A stretch of 64,000 bases of DNA from Desulfuromonas sp. (GTDB lineage: Bacteria; Desulfobacterota; Desulfuromonadia; Desulfuromonadales; BM501): the NCBI RefSeq assembly GCF_002868845.1, contig NZ_PKUB01000018.1, positions 45,807 to 109,806 of the forward strand, in the 5' to 3' direction. The translations under genes and the position numbers were made by a program. This document shows positions 845-18,217 of this stretch, one piece after another. Position 1 is the stretch's first letter. Each line of letters starts with the position of its first letter. The notes beneath the pieces were generated by a model that saw only the letters and a program-made list of their open reading frames with translations, was not told the DNA's origin and made no database searches.

Positions 845-1729
845 TCAGAGCGATTTTTCTTCCGCCAACCTCCAGAAAGCCAGCACGCTGGAACGTTGCA
901 GATTGCGTTTCGTCGAACAGAGCCCGACCACGTACGGTTCGAGTCGAGGGGCTTTCCCCAGGATCTGGATCTCGTCGCGGAAAGGGCTGCGGTCCAGGAC
1001 CAGTTGCGGAACAACGCCGACGCCGCAACCGAGCCTGACCATTGGAATGATCGCCTCGTTGCCGGAGACTTCAGAACTGATATTCGGCGTGATGCGGTTG
1101 CTCTTGAGCCACTTGTCGAGCCGCCGGCGCGACAGGCCGGCCCGGGGCAAAACCAGCGGCGCCCGCGACAGGTCGAGTTGCCCCTGGATGGCCGCCGCGA
1201 TCGAATCGTCCGGCTGTTGCGGGGCAATGAAGATCAGCGGGGTGGTGGTGATCGGCAGAAACTCGATCTGCGAACGATCCCGGTCGGGCAGCGCCGCCAC
1301 CGCAAGGTCGATTTCTCCGGTCTGCACCTGGCTCACGGCCTGCTCGGCCGTGCCTGTGCGCAGATCGAGCTGGACCTTGGGATAGGCACCGCGATACGAT
1401 TCCAGCAGGTTCGGCAGCAGGCTGTAGACGGCGGTGATCGAGGCATAGATGGAGAGCGCCCCGGCAATCGCCTGCTCAGCCTGGATCTCCGCATGGAAAC
1501 GCTGCCACTCCTGCAGCGCCTGGCGGGCGTAGATGCGGAACTGTTCTCCAGCCGCAGAGAGGGAGACCGTCCGGTTGTCCCGCAGGAAAAGCGGCTGTTC
1601 GACCTCTTCTTCGAGCCGCTGGATGGTTCGGGTCAGAGCCGACGGGCTCAGATTGCACGCCTGGCTGGCCCGCTTGAAATGGAGCAGGTCGGCGACGGTG
1701 AGAAAAATTTCGAGTTCGCGGATATCCAT
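845..1729 (-). CDS. ilvY: LysR-family transcriptional regulator, IlvY-like (divergent from ilvC)
   Basis: N-terminal LysR HTH (MDIRELEIFLTVADLLHFKRASQACNLSPSALTRTIQRLEEEV) is followed by a LysR substrate-binding domain. The gene is divergently adjacent to a long-form ilvC, as in the enterobacterial ilvY-ilvC arrangement. Confidence 0.8.
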   Translation of the reverse strand: MDIRELEIFLTVADLLHFKRASQACNLSPSALTRTIQRLEEEVEQPLFLRDNRTVSLSAAGEQFRIYARQALQEWQRFHAEIQAEQAIAGALSIYASITAVYSLLPNLLESYRGAYPKVQLDLRTGTAEQAVSQVQTGEIDLAVAALPDRDRSQIEFLPITTTPLIFIAPQQPDDSIAAAIQGQLDLSRAPLVLPRAGLSRRRLDKWLKSNRITPNISSEVSGNEAIIPMVRLGCGVGVVPQLVLDRSPFRDEIQILGKAPRLEPYVVGLCSTKRNLQRSSVLAFWRLAEEKSL

Positions 1730-1975
1730 GCAGGACCTCTCTGCCGATGGCCACCTCTACAGGCGTCACTGAGATGAAAAGATAAACGGTCGGATTCTGC
1801 TATGCTGTTGCACTGTCGGGGTCACTTTTCAGCCGCCGGAGAATATGGTGTTGCGGTGAGGGCAACATTGTGTGCATAAAAAATCAATTTACGCAATGTT
1901 AACTTTCCGCTATGGTACGCACCATCCACTCTTGCCTGCCGTTCACACACAGCCATAAATAAGGGAGAATTCACC

Positions 1976-3454
1976 ATGGGTCAGAATTATTTCAACACAC
2001 TGCCGTTGCGTCGTCAGCTGGAGGAACTCGGGACCTGCCATTTCATGGACAGCAGCGAGTTCAACGGCGTCGACTACCTCAAGGGGAAAAAGATCGTCGT
2101 CGTCGGCTGCGGCGCCCAGGGCCTGAACCAGGGCCTGAACATGCGCGACAGCGGTCTCGACGTCGCCTACGCCCTGCGCAAGGTCGAGATCGACGAAAAG
2201 CATATCTCCTGGCAGAACGCCACCGAGAACAACTTCGAGTTCGACACCATCGAAAACATGGTCCCCAAGGGCGACCTGGTCCTGAACCTGACCCCGGACA
2301 AGTACCATTCCCCGGTCGTTAACCACATTATGCCCCTGATGAAACAGGGTGCCTGCCTCTCCTATTCCCACGGCTTCAATATCGTCGAGGAAGGGATGCA
2401 GATCCGTAAGGACCTGACGGTTATCATGGTTGCGCCCAAGTCCCCCGGTTCGGAGGTTCGCGCCGAGTTCCTGCGCGGTTTCGGCGTGCCGACCCTGATC
2501 GCCGTCCACGGTGAGAACGATCCCAACGGCGACGGCCTCGATATCGCCAAGGCGTACTGCTGCGGTACCGGCGGCGACAAGGCCGGCGTGCTGCTGTCCT
2601 CCTTCGTGGCCGAAGTCAAATCGGACCTGATGGGCGAGCAGACCATCCTCTGCGGCGTGCTGCAGACCGGTTCCATCCTCTTCTACAACAAGATGGTCGC
2701 CTCCGGCATCGACTCCGGGTATGCCGCCAAGCTGATCCAGTACGGCTGGGAGACCACCACCGAAGCTCTCAAGCACGGCGGCATCACCAACATGATGGAC
2801 CGGCTCTCCAACCCGGCCAAGCTGAGGGCTTTCGCGCTGGCCGACGAACTGAAGGAGATCATGACTCCTCTGTTCGAGAAGCATATGGACGACATCATGT
2901 CCGGGCATTTCTCCGAGACCATGATGGCGGACTGGGCCAACAACGACGCGGACCTGCTGCGCTGGCGTGAAGAGACCAACAACGAGCCCTTTGAAAAAGC
3001 CGAAGCGCAGACCGCGGAGATCCCCGAGCAGGAGTACTTCGATAACGGCATCCTGATGGTGGCCATGGTCAAGGCGGGTGTCGAGCTGGCCTTCGACACC
3101 ATGGTGGCCGCCGGCATCAAGGAGGAGTCGGCCTACTACGAGTCGCTGCACGAGACGCCTCTGATCGCCAACGTCATCGCCAAGAAGAAGCTCTACGAGA
3201 TGAACAAGGTCATCTCCGACACGGCCGAGTACGGCTGCTACCTCTTCGCTCACGCCGCCGTGCCGCTGCTGAAGGACTTCATGGACACGGTCGGTACCGA
3301 CGTGATCGGCAAGGGGCTCGAGCTCAAGGACAACGGCGTCGACAACCAGATGCTGGTGGCCGTCAATGCCGAGATTCGCGGAACCCTGATCGAAGAGGTC
3401 GGCGAGGAACTGCGTGAGGTTATGGAGGGCATGCAGGCGATCGCCTCGGCCTGA
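1976..3454 (+). CDS. ilvC: ketol-acid reductoisomerase, long form (class II, ~491 aa type)
   Basis: 492 aa. The N-terminus NYFNTL.LR.QL..LG.C.FM...EF....[31 protein letters not shown] and the duplicated knotted domain length match the enterobacterial long-form KARI, not the ~335-aa class I form. Confidence 0.93.
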
Positions 3455-8554: not shown

Positions 8555-8776
8555 ATGGAGGAAAGCGATCAGGCCTTTGTTCAACAACTGTTTGACAATA
8601 ATCCCCGCTTCCGGTTGCTCTACGAAGAACACCTTTTGCTCGAGAGGGAACTGGAGGACCTTGATCAAAGATCCTACTTGACGCCCGAAGAAGAAGTCGA
8701 AAGAAAAAAGGTGCAAAAAATGAAGCTGGCCGGCAAGGATGAGATGGAGCTAATCCTGAGCAAGTTCCGCCAGTGA
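8555..8776 (+). CDS. DUF465 (YdcH-like) small coiled-coil protein
   Basis: 73 aa. The pattern F..L...N..F..L...H..L...L..L.....L.P.EE.E...LKK.KL..KDEM is characteristic of DUF465. Confidence 0.7.
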   Translation: MEESDQAFVQQLFDNNPRFRLLYEEHLLLERELEDLDQRSYLTPEEEVERKKVQKMKLAGKDEMELILSKFRQ

Positions 8777-8950
8777 CCTGAAGATATTCTGGAAGGGTTC
8801 GGGCCGCGCTCGAACCCTTTCTCCGTAAACAGGCCCGTTTGTTCGGCCTAAACAAAAATTTGCCGGTCCTTTAATTGTCCGGCGAACAGGGATCTTATGG
8901 TCCCTGTTCATTTATTTTCAGCTTTATACGAATCAGGGAGCAGTGAACTC

Positions 8951-10507
8951 ATGACAGCCCAACGCAGCGACGCCATCACCAAAGGCTTTGAACGCACCCC
9001 CCACCGGGCCCTTCTCAAGGGGACCGGAGTTCCCGAGGCCGAGATGGGCAAACCCTTCATCGGTATCGCCACCTCCTTCACCGACCTGATTCCCGGTCAT
9101 ACCGGGATGCGGGACTTGGAGCGGTACATCGAGAAGGGGGTCCACACTGGGGGGGGCTACTCCTTCCTGTTCGGCATCCCCGGTGTCTGCGACGGCATTG
9201 CCATGGGTCACAAGGGGATGCACTACTCCCTGCCCACCCGGGAGCTCATCGCCGACATGATCGAATCGATCGCCGAGGCCCACCGCCTCGACGGCCTGGT
9301 GCTGCTCACCAACTGCGACAAGATCACCCCCGGCATGCTGATGGCCGCCGCGCGCCTGGACATTCCCTGCATCGTTGTGACCGCCGGTCCGATGATGACC
9401 GGCGCCGGTCAGAAGGGGCGCCGCTTCTCCTTCGTCACCGACACCTTCGAGGCCATGGCCCAGTACAAGGCCGGGGTCATTGACGAACATGAACTCAAGA
9501 TCTGCGAAGATCACGCCTGCCCCACGACCGGAAGCTGTCAGGGGCTGTTCACCGCCAATACCATGGCGATTATCACAGAAACCCTCGGAATGAGCATGGT
9601 CCGCTGCGGCACTGCACTGGCCGTTTCCTCTCTCAAGCGGCGCATCGCTTTCGCCTCGGGCGAGCGCATCGTCGGCCTGGTCCGGGAGGGGATCACCCCC
9701 CGGCAGATCCTGACCAGCGAAGCTTTCGAGAACGCCATCCGGGTCGATCTCGCCCTGGGCGGTTCGAGCAACACCGTCCTGCACCTGCTGGCCATCGCCA
9801 AGGAGGCGGGCATCGAACTGCCCCTGGAGACCTTCGACAGCCTGAGCCGCACCACCCCGCAGCTCGCCTCCATGAACCCCGGAGGGGTGCATTTCATGGA
9901 AGATCTCGATGCCGCCGGGGGTGTGCCTGCCGTTTTCTATCAGTTGCGCGACCTGATCAAGGACAACCCGACCCTGACCGGTCCCACGGTCCGGCAGATC
10001 GTCGACAGCGTCGCCTCCGTCGAGGAGGACGTCGTCCACCCAGTCACCGACCCGGTGCGTCCCGAAGGGGGCATCGCCATTCTTTTCGGCAACCTCGCCC
10101 CGGACGGGGCCGTCGTCAAGCAGTCGGGGGTATCCGAGAAAATGATGAATTTCGAGGGCCGGGCCCGCTGCTTCGATTCCGAGGAGGCGGCCATGGAGGC
10201 TCTCATGGGCGGGGTCGTTGTCCCTGGCGATGTTGTGGTCATCCGCTATGAAGGGCCGAAGGGCGGTCCAGGGATGCGCGAGATGCTCGCCCCGACCGCC
10301 ACCCTCATGGGGCTCGGTCTTGGCGACAGCGTAGCCCTGGTGACCGACGGGCGTTTCTCCGGTGGAACCCGGGGGCCCTGCATCGGGCACATCTCCCCGG
10401 AGGCCGCCGAGGGCGGGCCCATCGCCCTGGTCGAGGACGGCGACGCCATCGTTCTCGACATCCCCAACCGGCGCCTCGAACTGTCGGTGGACGAGGCGAC
10501 CCTGTAG
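8951..10507 (+). CDS. ilvD: dihydroxy-acid dehydratase, interrupted by in-frame TAG at 10505-10507
   Basis: Contains [27 protein letters not shown]...[16 protein letters not shown]...[24 protein letters not shown]. The likely start is ATG 8951, since the track start at 8897 adds an atypical extension. The ORF ends ~40 codons before the family C-terminus. Confidence 0.9.
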
Positions 10508-10627: not shown

Positions 10628-10714
10628 GCATACACACGATGCCCCTGGTTCGCCCCCGGCGCAATTGGCCGGCGGTGCGATGGGCGTCGGATCTTTTTTT
10701 GGAGGAGGCTTTTT

Positions 10715-12412
10715 GTGAAAAAGACCGTATCGCAGATTCTCTTGGAATGCCTTCAGCTGGAAGGGGTGGAGACCGTTTTCGGCTACCCCGGGGGCACGGT
10801 TATCAATATCTACGATGACCTTATGGATTCTCCCATCACTCACGTCCTCACCCGCCATGAGCAGGCAGCGGTCCACGCCGCCGACGGCTTCGCCCGGGCC
10901 ACCGGCAAGGTCGGGGTGGCGATCGCCACAAGCGGCCCCGGCGCCACCAACACGGTGACCGGCATTGCCACCGCCTACATGGATTCCATCCCGATGGTGA
11001 TTATCACGGGGCAGGTTCCCACTCCCCTGATCGGCAACGACGCCTTTCAGGAGGCGGACATGGTCGGCATCACCCGGCCCGTCACCAAACACAACTACCT
11101 GGTCAAGGACGTCAAGGACCTGGCCCGCATCGTCAAGCAGGCCTTCTTCATCGCCCGCACCGGGCGTCCCGGGCCGGTCCTCATTGACCTGCCCAAGGAC
11201 GTCCAGATGGATTCCATCAAGTTCGAGTATCCCGACAAGGTCGAGTTGCGCGGCTACAAGCCGACCTACAGCGGCAACGTGCGCCAGATCGAGAAGGCGG
11301 CCAAGATGATTCTGGCCGCCAAGAAGCCGGTCATCTACGTCGGCGGCGGCGCGACCCTGGCCGACGCCCCGGCCGAACTATTGAGCTTTGCCGAGACGGT
11401 GCAGGTCCCGGTGACCACCACCCTGATGGGGATGGCCTCCTTCCCTCGCCGCCACCCCCTATCCCTCGGTATGCTCGGGATGCACGGCACCTACTACGCC
11501 AACATGGCGGTGACCAACTCGGACCTGCTGATCGCCGTCGGGGCCCGCTTCGACGACCGGGTCACGGGCAAGATTGCCACTTTTGCCCCCCACGCCAAGA
11601 TCATCCACATCGACATCGACCCGACCTCCATTAAAAAGAACGTGCGGGTCGACCTGCCGATCGTCGGCGACCTGTGCGACGTCCTGGGCAAGTTGACCAA
11701 GGCGGTAAAAGGCCACAAGGACGAGCTCAAGGCCTTGGTGGCCGACGGCGCCGCCTGGCGCGACGAGGTCCAGGTGTGGAAAGATGAGCACCCCATGGGC
11801 TACAAGGCCTCCAAGACCGTCATCAAGCCCCAGTTCGTCATCGAGAAGATCCGGGAGTTGACCGACGACGACGCCATCATCACCACCGAGGTGGGGCAGC
11901 ACCAGATGTGGACCGCCCAGTTTTTCGACTTCACCCAGCCGCGGACTTTCCTCAGCTCCGGCGGACTGGGGACGATGGGCTACGGGCTCCCCTCGGCCCT
12001 CGGCGCCCAGGCGGCCTTCCCCAAGCGGCAGGTCATCGACATCTCCGGCGACGGTTCCTTCCAGATGAACTCCCAGGAACTGGCCACTCTCGTTCAGTAC
12101 CGCCTGCCGGTCAAGATCGTCATCCTTAACAATAATTTCCTTGGGATGGTGCGCCAGTGGCAGCAGCTCTTCTTCGATAAGCGCTACAGCCAGACCTGCA
12201 TGGAGCTGCCTATCGACTTCATCAAGCTGGCCGAGGCCTACGGTGCAAACGGGTTCCGGGCCACCAAGCCGGAGGAGGTGGAGTCTGTCATCCGCCAGGG
12301 CCTCGAGACGCCGGGGCCTGTGATCATGGAGTTCAAGGTCGCCCGCGAGGAGAACGTCCTTCCCATGGTGCCCGCCGGTGCGGGCCTCAACGAGATGGTC
12401 CTGGCCTCCTAG
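10715..12412 (+). CDS. ilvB: acetolactate synthase large (catalytic) subunit
   Basis: GTG start preceded by GGAGGAGG. TPP-enzyme motifs are present: GYPGG...SGPGATN...[15 protein letters not shown]...GDGSFQMN. Confidence 0.95.
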
Positions 12413-12453
12413 GAGGGCGATTGAGTGCAAATTTTTTCGAGGAGAATGATCCT

Positions 12454-12948
12454 ATGAGACATACCATTTCGGTTTTGGTGGAAAACGAGTTCGGGGTGCT
12501 GACCCGGGTGGCCGGGCTGTTCTCGGGGAGGGGATTCAATATCGAGAGCCTCTCTGTGGCCCCCACCCTCGATCCGACCATTTCCCGCATGACCATTGTC
12601 ACCAGCGGCGACGACGCGATTCTGGAGCAGATCACCAAGCAACTCAACAAGCTGATCGATACCATTAAAGTCATCGACTTCACCGGGCAGGATTACGTGG
12701 AACGGGAGATGGCCATGGTCAAGGTGGCCGCCGAGGAGAACACCCGCGCCGAGGTCCTGCGCATCGCCGACATCTTCCGGGCCAAGGTGGTCGATATCAC
12801 CCCCCGCTCCTATACCATCGAGGTCACCGGGGCCCCGGGCAAAATCGACGCGATCATGGAATTGCTTCGGCCCATGGGGATTAAAGAGATCGTCCGCTCC
12901 GGCCCGGTCGTCCTTGGTCGCGGCGCCAAGGGCTGGAAATCAGCCTGA
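12454..12948 (+). CDS. ilvN: acetolactate synthase small (regulatory) subunit
   Basis: MRHTISVLVENEFGVLTRVAGLFSGRGFNIESLSV (ACT domain). ATG 12454 is preceded by GAGGAG. The track start at TTG 12421 is less likely. Confidence 0.93.
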   Translation: MRHTISVLVENEFGVLTRVAGLFSGRGFNIESLSVAPTLDPTISRMTIVTSGDDAILEQITKQLNKLIDTIKVIDFTGQDYVEREMAMVKVAAEENTRAEVLRIADIFRAKVVDITPRSYTIEVTGAPGKIDAIMELLRPMGIKEIVRSGPVVLGRGAKGWKSA

Positions 12949-13034
12949 GCAGGTGCTTGAGGGAAAACCGATTTAACAGGGTGCAACCTGCGGAAATTGC
13001 TTTTGCATCGGCACCTCGTTGTGATATAAATTCA

Positions 13035-13204
13035 GGTCCGGATCGGGAAGTACGTCTCCGAGGCGCCGGGGCCAAGGTCAATGCTCCGGTCAACGCCTGC
13101 ATCGCCAGGCTGCCACCGTCCCCATTGACAAGGTAGGCCAGGATTTGCGAGGCAAGATGAGCTGGATCGGCAAGAACAAGATGGCCGACAAAGAGCGCAA
13201 CTAG
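13035..13204 (+). pseudogene. ilvC: relic of the 3' end of a class I ketol-acid reductoisomerase gene (frameshifted; N-terminal ~280 codons missing)
   Basis: The frame ending at TAG 13202-13204 reads ...QRLHRQAATVPIDKVGQDLRGKMSWIGKNKMADKERN*. This resembles the class I KARI C-terminus as I recall it (..H.IE.VG..LR.MM.WI..NK.VD..KN). An upstream piece in another frame reads ...AGAKVNA. It sits exactly where Geobacter-type clusters carry ilvC, after ilvN. Confidence 0.6.
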
Positions 13205-13220
13205 AAATTATTACCCAACG

Positions 13221-13255
13221 ACGGGGGCAGGGTGACCTGCCCCCGTTTATTTTTT
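13221..13255 (+). terminator. intrinsic terminator following the ilvC relic
   Basis: Stem ACGGGGGCAGG (13221-13231) / CCTGCCCCCGT (13236-13246), loop GTGA, then TTATTTTTT. Confidence 0.8.
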
Positions 13256-13276
13256 ACACATTCAGAGGTTTGCCCC

Positions 13277-13921
13277 ATGAAAAACCAAAACCAGCCCGTC
13301 GCCAGTGAAGGGTACCCCTTTATCGGGCTCTTCGCCTTCGTGACCCTGGTCTTCGGCCTGCTCGACTGGGATTTCCTTGCCTTCGTCATGCTGGCCCTGA
13401 CCCTTTTTGCCATCTACTTCTTCCGCAACCCCGAGCGATGCATTCCCGACGAAGAGGGCGCCGTGGTCGCCCCGGCCGACGGCAAGGTCATTTTCGTCGG
13501 CCAGGTTCCCGAAGACCGCTACTTTCATGCCGAGGTCACCAAGGTCAGCATCTTCATGTCGGTCTTCAACGTTCACGTCAACCGCGCTCCCGCCGCCGGG
13601 AAAGTGATCGACATGTTCTACAACCGGGGGGAGTTCTTCAACGCCTCCCTCGACAAGGCCAGCATGCAGAATGAGCAGGGCGGGATCCTCCTCGAGACGC
13701 AAGGGGGCCAGAGGCTTCTTTTCGTCCAGATCGCCGGCCTCGTGGCCCGGCGTATCGTTACCTATCCCGTCGTCGGAGACCTGCTCGAGCGCGGCGCACG
13801 TTACGGCCTGATCCGCTTCGGCTCCCGCGTCGATGTATATTTTCCCTCCGGTGCCGAGGTCTCCGCCAAGGTCGGCGACCGGACCTGCGCCGGAGAGACC
13901 GTACTCGGGTACCTGCGATGA
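13277..13921 (+). CDS. psd: phosphatidylserine decarboxylase proenzyme (short, Asd-type)
   Basis: MKNQNQPVASEGYPFIG...APADGKV...IFMSVFNVHVNRAP..G...FGSRVDV, with a GS(R/T) self-cleavage-type motif. ATG 13277 gives the usual ~214 aa. Confidence 0.88.
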   Translation: MKNQNQPVASEGYPFIGLFAFVTLVFGLLDWDFLAFVMLALTLFAIYFFRNPERCIPDEEGAVVAPADGKVIFVGQVPEDRYFHAEVTKVSIFMSVFNVHVNRAPAAGKVIDMFYNRGEFFNASLDKASMQNEQGGILLETQGGQRLLFVQIAGLVARRIVTYPVVGDLLERGARYGLIRFGSRVDVYFPSGAEVSAKVGDRTCAGETVLGYLR

Positions 13922-15042: not shown

Positions 15043-15245
15043 ATTTTGCGCGCTCCGGAATGACCCAACCCGCTGGCAGTCGATTCCTGTCAGCGGCTCT
15101 CCAAGCGAAAGGGGGTGGTGACGTGGAATCGGACCTAGGTGACCTGATGGCCTTAAAACAGTCGGTTAAACTGGAAACATTGATAAATCACGTGCTGCCC
15201 CATCCGGCCTGAATGGCCGTGGCGGAAGTCGAAAAAGGAGGCTCC

Positions 15246-16784
<1,539 letters not shown>

Positions 16785-16936
16785 CGGGCGGGACCGCCCG
16801 AGGCTCCCGGCCGGCGGAGAGGCAGACGCCTCTCCGCCGGCCTTTTCCTGCGCCGAGTCGGGGCCTTGCGCGATCCTCCCGACTTGGGTTAGAATCCCGA
16901 CCGTTGTTTCAGAAGATTTATAGCCAAGGAGTGACC

Positions 16937-18217
16937 ATGGGAAAGACGATAGCCGAAAAGATTTTTGACGCTCACCTGCGGGACGAGCCTTTTGCCGGGA
17001 CCAAGGTTCTCGACATCGACCGGGTCCTGTGCCACGAGATCACCACCCCGGTGGCCATCGCCGACCTCGAGTGGCGGGGCAAGGACCGGGTCTTCAACCG
17101 CGAGAAGATCAAGGCGGTCATCGACCACGTGACCCCCTCGAAGGACAGCAAGACCGCCATTCAGGCCAAGATGCTGCGCGACTGGGCCCGCCGCCACGAG
17201 ATCCAGGATTTCTTCGACGTCGGCCGCAACGGCGTCTGTCACGCCATCTTCCCCGAGAAGGGCTACATCCGCCCCGGCTTCACCGTCATCATGGGCGACA
17301 GCCACACCTGCACCCACGGGGCCTTCTGCGCCTTCGCCGCAGGCATCGGCACCACCGATCTCGAGGTCGGAATTCTCAAGGGGGTCTGCGCCTTTCGCGA
17401 ACCGGCCACTATCCGGGTCAACCTGAACGGCTCGCTGCCCGAGGGAGTCTACGCCAAGGACGTGATCCTCTACGTCATCGGCCAGCTAGGGGTCAACGGC
17501 GCCACAGACCGGGTCATCGAGTTCCGCGGCGAGGTCGTCGATGCCATGAGCATGGAGGCGCGGATGACCCTGTGCAACATGGCCATTGAGGCCGGCGGCA
17601 CCAGCGGCATCTGCCTGCCCGACAGCGTCACCGTCGATTACCTGTGGCCCTTTATCGAGGGCGAGTACGACAGCAGGGAAGCCGCCCTGGCCGACTTCCA
17701 GAAATGGCACTCGGATGCCGACGCCGCCTACGAGAAAGTGCTCGACCTGGACGTCAGCGTCATCGAGCCGATGGTGACCTACGGCTTCAAGCCCGACTGC
17801 GTCAAGCCCGTCGGCGAGATGGCCGGCACCCCCGTCGACCAGGTTTATATCGGCACCTGCACTAACGGCCGCATCGAAGACCTGCGGGTCGCCGCCGAAG
17901 TGCTGAAGGGCAAGGTCATCGCGGACAGCGTGCGCGGCATCGTTTCGCCGGCCACTCCCAAGATCTTCAACGACGCTCTTGCAGAGGGGATCATCCAGGT
18001 CTTCATGGACGCCGGCTTCTGCGTCACCAACCCGACCTGCGGCGCCTGCCTCGGCATGAGCAACGGCGTCATGGCCGAAGGGGAGGTCTGCGCCTCCACC
18101 AGCAACCGCAACTTCAACGGCCGCATGGGCAAGGGGGGGATGGTTCACCTGATGAGCCCCGCCACCGCCGCCGCCTCGGCCGTCGCCGGGGTTATCGCCG
18201 ACGCTCGAAAAATCTAA
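16937..18217 (+). CDS. leuC: 3-isopropylmalate dehydratase large subunit
   Basis: MGKTIAEKIFDAHL...CHEITTP...MGDSHTCTHGAFCAFAAGIGTTD...GTCTNGR...CGACLG...STSNRNF.GRMG. The track ORF 15470..18217 is a run-on, and its upstream part is out of frame within leuA. Confidence 0.95.
   Translation: MGKTIAEKIFDAHLRDEPFAGTKVLDIDRVLCHEITTPVAIADLEWRGKDRVFNREKIKAVIDHVTPSKDSKTAIQAKMLRDWARRHEIQDFFDVGRNGVCHAIFPEKGYIRPGFTVIMGDSHTCTHGAFCAFAAGIGTTDLEVGILKGVCAFREPATIRVNLNGSLPEGVYAKDVILYVIGQLGVNGATDRVIEFRGEVVDAMSMEARMTLCNMAIEAGGTSGICLPDSVTVDYLWPFIEGEYDSREAALADFQKWHSDADAAYEKVLDLDVSVIEPMVTYGFKPDCVKPVGEMAGTPVDQVYIGTCTNGRIEDLRVAAEVLKGKVIADSVRGIVSPATPKIFNDALAEGIIQVFMDAGFCVTNPTCGACLGMSNGVMAEGEVCASTSNRNFNGRMGKGGMVHLMSPATAAASAVAGVIADARKI

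Follow-up and report, generated by a model that had tools for sequence, protein, structure and literature searches.

Gene organization at the locus

The window analysed here, a 64,000-nucleotide stretch of Desulfuromonas sp. DNA, carries at its left end frr (68–517), followed by fdx (556–714), which encodes a small 2x[4Fe-4S] ferredoxin, and by a pair of divergent genes, an ilvY-type LysR regulator gene (845–1729, minus strand) and an intact class II ilvC encoding the long form of the enzyme (492 residues; 1976–3454, plus strand). Downstream of the class II ilvC lie uppS, cdsA, dxr, rseP, tsaB, ilvD (from 8897) and ilvB (10715–12412); after ilvB follow ilvN, a gap of 328 bp, psd, pssA and leuA. 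The fdx gene contains an internal 65-nt direct repeat that corresponds to its two cluster-binding halves, and a perfect bidirectional terminator is located 3' of it at 779–814.

The two genes that flank the gap are assigned with confidence by their family models. On the left, ilvN (12454–12948, plus strand) encodes the small subunit of acetolactate synthase (243.6 bits against NF008864, cutoff 119; Pfam domains ALS_ss_C and ACT), and on the right, psd (13277–13921, plus strand) encodes phosphatidylserine decarboxylase (284 bits against NF003678, cutoff 225). Between the end of ilvN at 12948 and the start of psd at 13277 there is no open reading frame of ilvC length, in agreement with the first-pass annotation of this DNA; the open reading frames that can be called mechanically in the gap, i.e., one of 59 residues at 12957–13136 on the plus strand and two of 73 and 36 residues on the minus strand, have no family match.

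In the neighbouring ilvD, a nonsense codon at 10505–10507 (T at 10505, where the sibling assemblies L001 and L002 have a G that specifies Glu) removes the last 40 residues, and the in-frame reading continues beyond the stop. The codon may represent a strain variant or a sequencing error, and many of the differences between the window and L001 are changes to T.

A class I ilvC remnant between ilvN and psd

The frame that closes at the TAG codon 13202–13204 ends in RLHRQAATVPIDKVGQDLRGKMSWIGKNKMADKERN, as first read, and the proposal that this tail resembles the C-terminal end of class I (short-form) ketol-acid reductoisomerases (KARIs) is borne out by searches of PDB and NCBIfam, by tblastn, and by both protein and DNA profiles. 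A PDB search at E ≤ 10 yields nine matches, every one a class I KARI whose very C-terminus is the aligned part; 1np3 ranks first (residues 305–338 of 338, E 0.0016). NCBIfam contributes a single match, to NF004017, the model for class I KARI (positions 298–336 of 337, E 0.0011). When the class I KARI of the related locus L003 is searched against the entire 64-kb window with tblastn, it aligns to 13097–13201 with 66% identity over 35 residues (E 1.6e-9); no further class I ilvC was found in the window by this search, the only other KARI-like region being the class II gene. With a profile built from 120 class I KARIs, only model positions 303–338 are matched, at 28.9 bits, and the remaining two frames of the gap give no match.

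The homology is not confined to the coding sequence. DNA similarity to L003 starts at 13096 and extends beyond the stop codon as far as 13234, and a DNA profile derived from six intact ilvN-to-psd intervals aligns with 13028–13268 (79.1 bits, E 4e-27). Furthermore, the tail SWIGKNK..DKERN belongs to the 338-residue subtype of the clade that includes the window (L003, L004 and L006), and differs from the 336-residue subtype of other relatives.

Homology, position and truncation together identify 13094–13204 on the plus strand as a class I KARI relic, the firm core of which comprises the last 36 codons (303–338) and the TAG stop codon. Pfam has no match of any kind in any frame of the gap, the NADPH-binding Rossmann domain, KARI_N, included, and the earliest possible start codon in the relic frame, a TTG at 13145, leaves only 19 codons. 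Compared with a functional class I KARI, which has a full-length reading frame of about 330–340 codons with a start codon and a KARI_N domain, the segment thus shares the descent and lacks both the frame and the domain.

A chance similarity, or an assembly artefact (chimeric join or collapsed region) that conceals a full ilvC present in the real genome, is hardly credible. The source is a metagenome assembly, and the window differs from the sibling assembly L001 at 27 of 20,645 positions, the ilvD nonsense codon included, such that some base errors are possible; however, E values from 1e-9 to 4e-27 and DNA homology that stays collinear beyond the stop codon and on into the terminator do not lend support to chance, and the same 328-bp gap recurs with one or two differences in two other contigs, ENA ERZ794998 NODE_75 (145 kb, 250x coverage) and a contig of JGI 3300007102, both of which encode a Psd identical to that of the window. 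Comparable relics are also present in unrelated assemblies.

Decay of the remnant

The relic core bears the marks of a sequence on which constraint has been relaxed. Four of the 12 columns that are invariant across the 120 homologs are altered (A303R, H311V, E314D and V333A), nine of the 36 residues occur in none of the 120, and the most similar homolog is identical at 23 of 36 positions, compared with a median of 28 for intact genes. Identity to L003 at the first, second and third codon positions is 80, 83 and 69% for the relic, and 88, 94 and 65% for ilvN. In this sample of only 35–36 codons, the first and second positions have lost constraint, yet they still exceed the third, consistent with the gene having been lost recently in comparison with the split from L003.

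Left boundary of the remnant

The first-pass annotation had placed an upstream piece, read as GAGAKVNA in another frame, within the relic, and had estimated that about 55 codons and the terminator remain. The corresponding 55 nt (13039–13093, plus strand) are collinear with codons ~282–302 in the DNA-profile alignment, with several indels, and would represent a putative, heavily degraded continuation of the core that has accumulated at least four indels. With the firm core as an anchor, it contributes a further 6.7 bits, a gain reached by 2.6% of 500 shuffles. On its own it has no match to the DNA profile, nor in its own frame to the protein profile, and pairwise DNA tests return p values of 0.03–0.17. 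A rival alignment with the N-terminal codons 15–37 of the relic in L068 (p 0.006) is not significant against 11 intact genes.

The relic probably extends collinearly back to about 13039 (codon ~282), although the support for this is weak (p about 0.03). Consequently, the 36 codons and the terminator are firm, and the figure of ~55 codons, which draws on the anchored extension, is plausible rather than established; the same applies to the upstream piece, for which the anchored test is modestly favourable and the profile search in its own frame is empty. The left deletion junction can be placed near 13038/13039, since TGATATAAATTCAGGTC (13022–13038) matches the promoter-proximal part of the ilvN–ilvC spacer of L003, TGCTATAAGTTCAGGTC.

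The ilvN–psd interval in relatives

For comparison of the interval among relatives, a Psd scan with one genome per species yielded 45 loci, and a metagenome scan yielded 46 more; no relative closer than about 84% Psd identity was found in these genome and metagenome scans. The earlier expectation that a class I ilvC resides between ilvN and psd in related clusters holds for at least 25 loci, the nearest relatives included. An intact class I ilvC is located exactly between the two genes in 15 of the 40 genome loci that span the interval and in at least ten metagenome loci, and in three further contigs, which start inside or just upstream of ilvC, the gene adjoins psd. In about 23 genome loci the site is without ilvC and the gap spans 20–347 bp; L033, which is among these, retains a relic.

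The closest view of the ancestral arrangement is offered by L058, which stems from the same genome as L004 and is one of the two closest relatives; its gene order, frr-fdx-uppS-cdsA-dxr-rseP-tsaB-DUF465-ilvD-ilvB-ilvN-ilvC(I)-psd-pssA-leuA, is that of the window. The fdx–uppS gap in L058 measures 140 bp and holds no ilvY-ilvC cassette, and the two loci thus differ by two changes, an insertion of ~2.9 kb carrying ilvY and the class II ilvC, and the loss of the class I ilvC. As in the window, the same fdx gene is found 3' of frr in L058. In NJ trees based on IlvB, IlvN and Psd (the first tree also on LeuA), the window is placed beside L004, L006 and L065, all of which bear a class I gene; other relic bearers fall in clades apart from it.

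The gene downstream of psd also varies among relatives. In L003, L015, L017, L020, L030, L046 and L059, pssA is absent 3' of psd and a gap of ~600 bp precedes leuA, and a 15-residue trace of the PssA N-terminus is present at 10669–10713 of L022; pssA may represent a second gene loss or relocation within the same cluster.

Stages of loss in other lineages

Loss of the class I ilvC at this site is not special to the genome of the window, but is seen in several Desulfuromonadales lineages and at different stages. One genome, L022, holds both genes, a class I ilvC at 8743–9753 and ilvY with a class II ilvC at 15044–17447. The class I copy of L022 is an intact reading frame in which 11 unique substitutions, among them W343C, Y265D and P164I, fall on columns without variation in 13 other sequences; close relatives have zero to two such changes. 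This suggests that the copy is under relaxed selection ahead of its loss. The class I protein of L083 has 62% identity to that of L003, where 66–67% is usual, and may be a case similar to L022.

Three further types of remnant are observed. The relic in L033 (Geopsychrobacter) retains about the last 47–76 codons with stop codons inside; that in L070 consists of the 5' untranslated region, the first seven codons and the last ~38 codons, out of frame; and that in L068 and L069 comprises codons 1–37 and 249–338, with stops. A class II ilvC is present in two assemblies that have no ilvC at the site, namely MHXM01 (L017, L051) and PKUC01 (L037, L054). Since the other relic bearers belong to clades apart from the window, the losses are independent, and we estimate that the class I ilvC has been lost at least five times in Desulfuromonadales, bearing in mind that the NJ trees behind this number are rough and built on three to four proteins. 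Acquisition of the class II gene before loss of the class I gene is demonstrated in the L022 lineage only.

Promoter-like element, terminator and expression of psd

Two elements of the former gene border the remnant. On its left, comparison of relatives reveals a retained ilvC promoter-like element (13002–13038, plus strand), with a −35 hexamer TTTGCA (13002–13007), a 17-nt spacer and an extended −10 element TGaTATAAA (13022–13030), directly 3' of which lies the conserved TTCAGGTC (13031–13038). The corresponding motif, TTGGCA or TTGCCA, 17–18 nt and TGnTATAAA, occurs in the ilvN–ilvC spacer of nearly all class I loci, and it is kept in many loci that have no ilvC (L007, L015, L017, L024, L026, L029, L033, L034, L040 and L064), in whose gaps it is often followed by a terminator-like hairpin and then directly by psd. 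The motif was found only through this comparison; a consensus promoter scan of 12700–13500, which requires T at position 6 of the −10 element, found none. The motif at 13002–13030 would act as a promoter.

On the right, the remnant is followed by the intrinsic terminator of the former ilvC (13220–13256, plus strand), composed of a hairpin at 13220–13247, GACGGGGGCAGG-GTGA-CCTGCCCCCGTT, and a T-run. The strength claimed for this terminator at the outset is confirmed by its 12 pairs (nine of them G-C), 4-nt loop, folding energy of −27 kcal/mol and z score of −3.7. Equivalent G+C-rich hairpins are present 3' of the intact ilvC of relatives. A search with Rfam over 12400–13400 gave only a match, below threshold, between the terminator hairpin and the end of CsrC. 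The T-run ends about 21 nt 5' of the psd start with no promoter found between the two, which implies that psd-pssA would be expressed through read-through or from an unrecognised promoter.

This arrangement raises the question whether the ilvC 3' end and terminator are kept by selection as a cis-regulatory leader of psd-pssA, e.g., for tuned read-through, or because a promoter or RNA-stability element resides inside the old coding sequence; the fragment would then be more than neutral debris. All four relic types (the window, L033, L070 and L068/L069) keep the last 32–90 codons and the downstream hairpin, with varying 5' retention; psd, with no promoter found after the terminator, would be reached by read-through; and many genomes devoid of any ilvC coding sequence still have the promoter-like motif and a hairpin resembling a terminator. 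However, the relic is decaying, invariant codons included, no Rfam family or promoter consensus is found inside it, and the whole interval is gone in many relatives, where 20–57 bp are left, which indicates that it is dispensable. Furthermore, deletion bias alone predicts that remnants will survive beside constrained elements. We therefore regard a selected leader function as improbable.

The class II ilvC and its regulator

The gene at 1976–3454, ~10 kb upstream of the relic on the same contig, encodes a protein that scores 874 bits against NF003557 (cutoff 713) with residues 3–491 covered, contains KARI_N and two KARI_C stretches, and aligns with E. coli IlvC (1YRL) over its full length (716 bits, 488 residues). 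The protein encoded at 845–1729 scores 377 bits against the IlvY model NF008722 (cutoff 246), and the two genes, on opposite strands, share an intergenic region of 246 bp. This agrees with the first-pass proposal that the lost function is supplied by the long-form gene, here recognized as coding for a class II KARI of full length and as paired with the gene of a regulator of the IlvY type; on the basis of these protein assignments, the class II ilvC would provide the KARI function in this organism.

The nearest homologs of the class II KARI (86–93% identity) are from Desulfuromonadales MAGs, and the next nearest (75–79%) from Desulfobulbaceae and Desulfobacterales; the protein is therefore not a recent enterobacterial import but belongs to a lineage established in these bacteria. 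A divergent LysR gene stands beside every related class II ilvC examined. The unit of ilvY and class II ilvC is intact in L048, L049/L050, L051, L053, L054, L057, L022 and the window, with a different neighbourhood in almost all of them. At least six different contexts are found among relatives, and in L022 and L057 the cassette is situated immediately 3' of leuCD. The variety of neighbourhoods suggests that the cassette is mobile or has been acquired repeatedly. Scars were sought at its flanks, where there are no flanking direct repeats, tRNA or transposase, and the intergenic DNA is too diverged from that of L058 for mapping of the cassette boundaries. The G+C content of the cassette, about 0.60–0.64, is like that of its surroundings and carries no foreign mark.

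Discussion

The data presented here make it very probable that 13094–13204, and probably the sequence from ~13039 onward, is a non-functional remnant of a class I ilvC that has been replaced by a cassette consisting of a class II ilvC and an IlvY-type regulator. The ancestral order ilvB-ilvN-ilvC-psd-pssA is evident from the relatives. At least one deletion then removed the 5' part of the gene, from the untranslated region and start codon through about the first 280–300 codons; in outline this is shown, and it accords with the initial proposal that the first ~280 codons are missing, given that the relic begins firmly at codon 303 and probably at ~282. What is left of ilvC is its promoter-like element and its terminator, with a frameshifted 3' piece between them. 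With neither a start codon nor a ribosome-binding site, the remnant frame is expected to yield no useful product. The remnant has probably been kept only through its adjacency to the terminator and to the psd translation start, which could not be removed without harm. KARI activity would now come from the class II ilvC with its regulator (845–3454), which, relative to L058, appears as the ~2.9-kb insertion between fdx and uppS. The same replacement has taken place in several Desulfuromonadales lineages, at stages that differ among genomes. The order of events, the lack of a second class I copy and the transcription of the remnant are inferred.

A broader version of this account can be formulated, in which a mobile ilvY-ilvC(II) cassette has replaced the class I gene at least five times independently because a substrate-induced, IlvY-regulated long-form enzyme is advantageous, possibly with respect to regulation or cofactor use, and in which the retained promoter, 3' remnant and terminator were subsequently co-opted as a leader of psd-pssA. 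As a whole, we consider this scenario rather doubtful.

Compared with the class I IlvC of Geobacter and Desulfuromonas (~338 residues, encoded in ilvB-ilvN-ilvC-psd-pssA clusters), the relic shares residues 303–338, position, kind of terminator and tail; however, it keeps only about 36 to 57 of the 338 codons, has no start codon and neither a Rossmann nor a catalytic domain, and is altered at invariant residues. The relic thus derives from the class I IlvC family without being a functional member of it. Compared with ilvY-ilvC of E. coli, the window has the same divergent layout at 845–3454, and both proteins pass the NCBIfam equivalog cut-offs; the nearest homologs of the window's cassette are, however, from Desulfuromonadales, and their genomic contexts vary.

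It is a known pattern that a gene needed for an essential step gives way to a distant homolog at another locus and that the old copy decays in place. The relic is a well-supported, genuine pseudogene remnant of an event of this kind, and it reveals no new kind of system. Literature searches returned no published description of a displacement of class I by class II ilvC in these bacteria. What distinguishes the present case from the general pattern is that the stages can be seen side by side in a single bacterial order: both genes together, a copy that is degenerating, relics of four different types, and loss without a trace.

For the annotation of this genome, it follows that no ilvC should be called in the ilvN–psd gap and that the gene to be annotated with the KARI function is the class II ilvC at 1976–3454. 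For the order, the loci constitute a worked example of gene displacement, with only the old gene at the site, both genes (in one genome, with a degenerating old copy), four different remnants, and many loci without any ilvC at the site. Such a series could serve to study how fast biosynthetic genes decay once they are redundant, and what lies behind the repeated success of one KARI class over the other.
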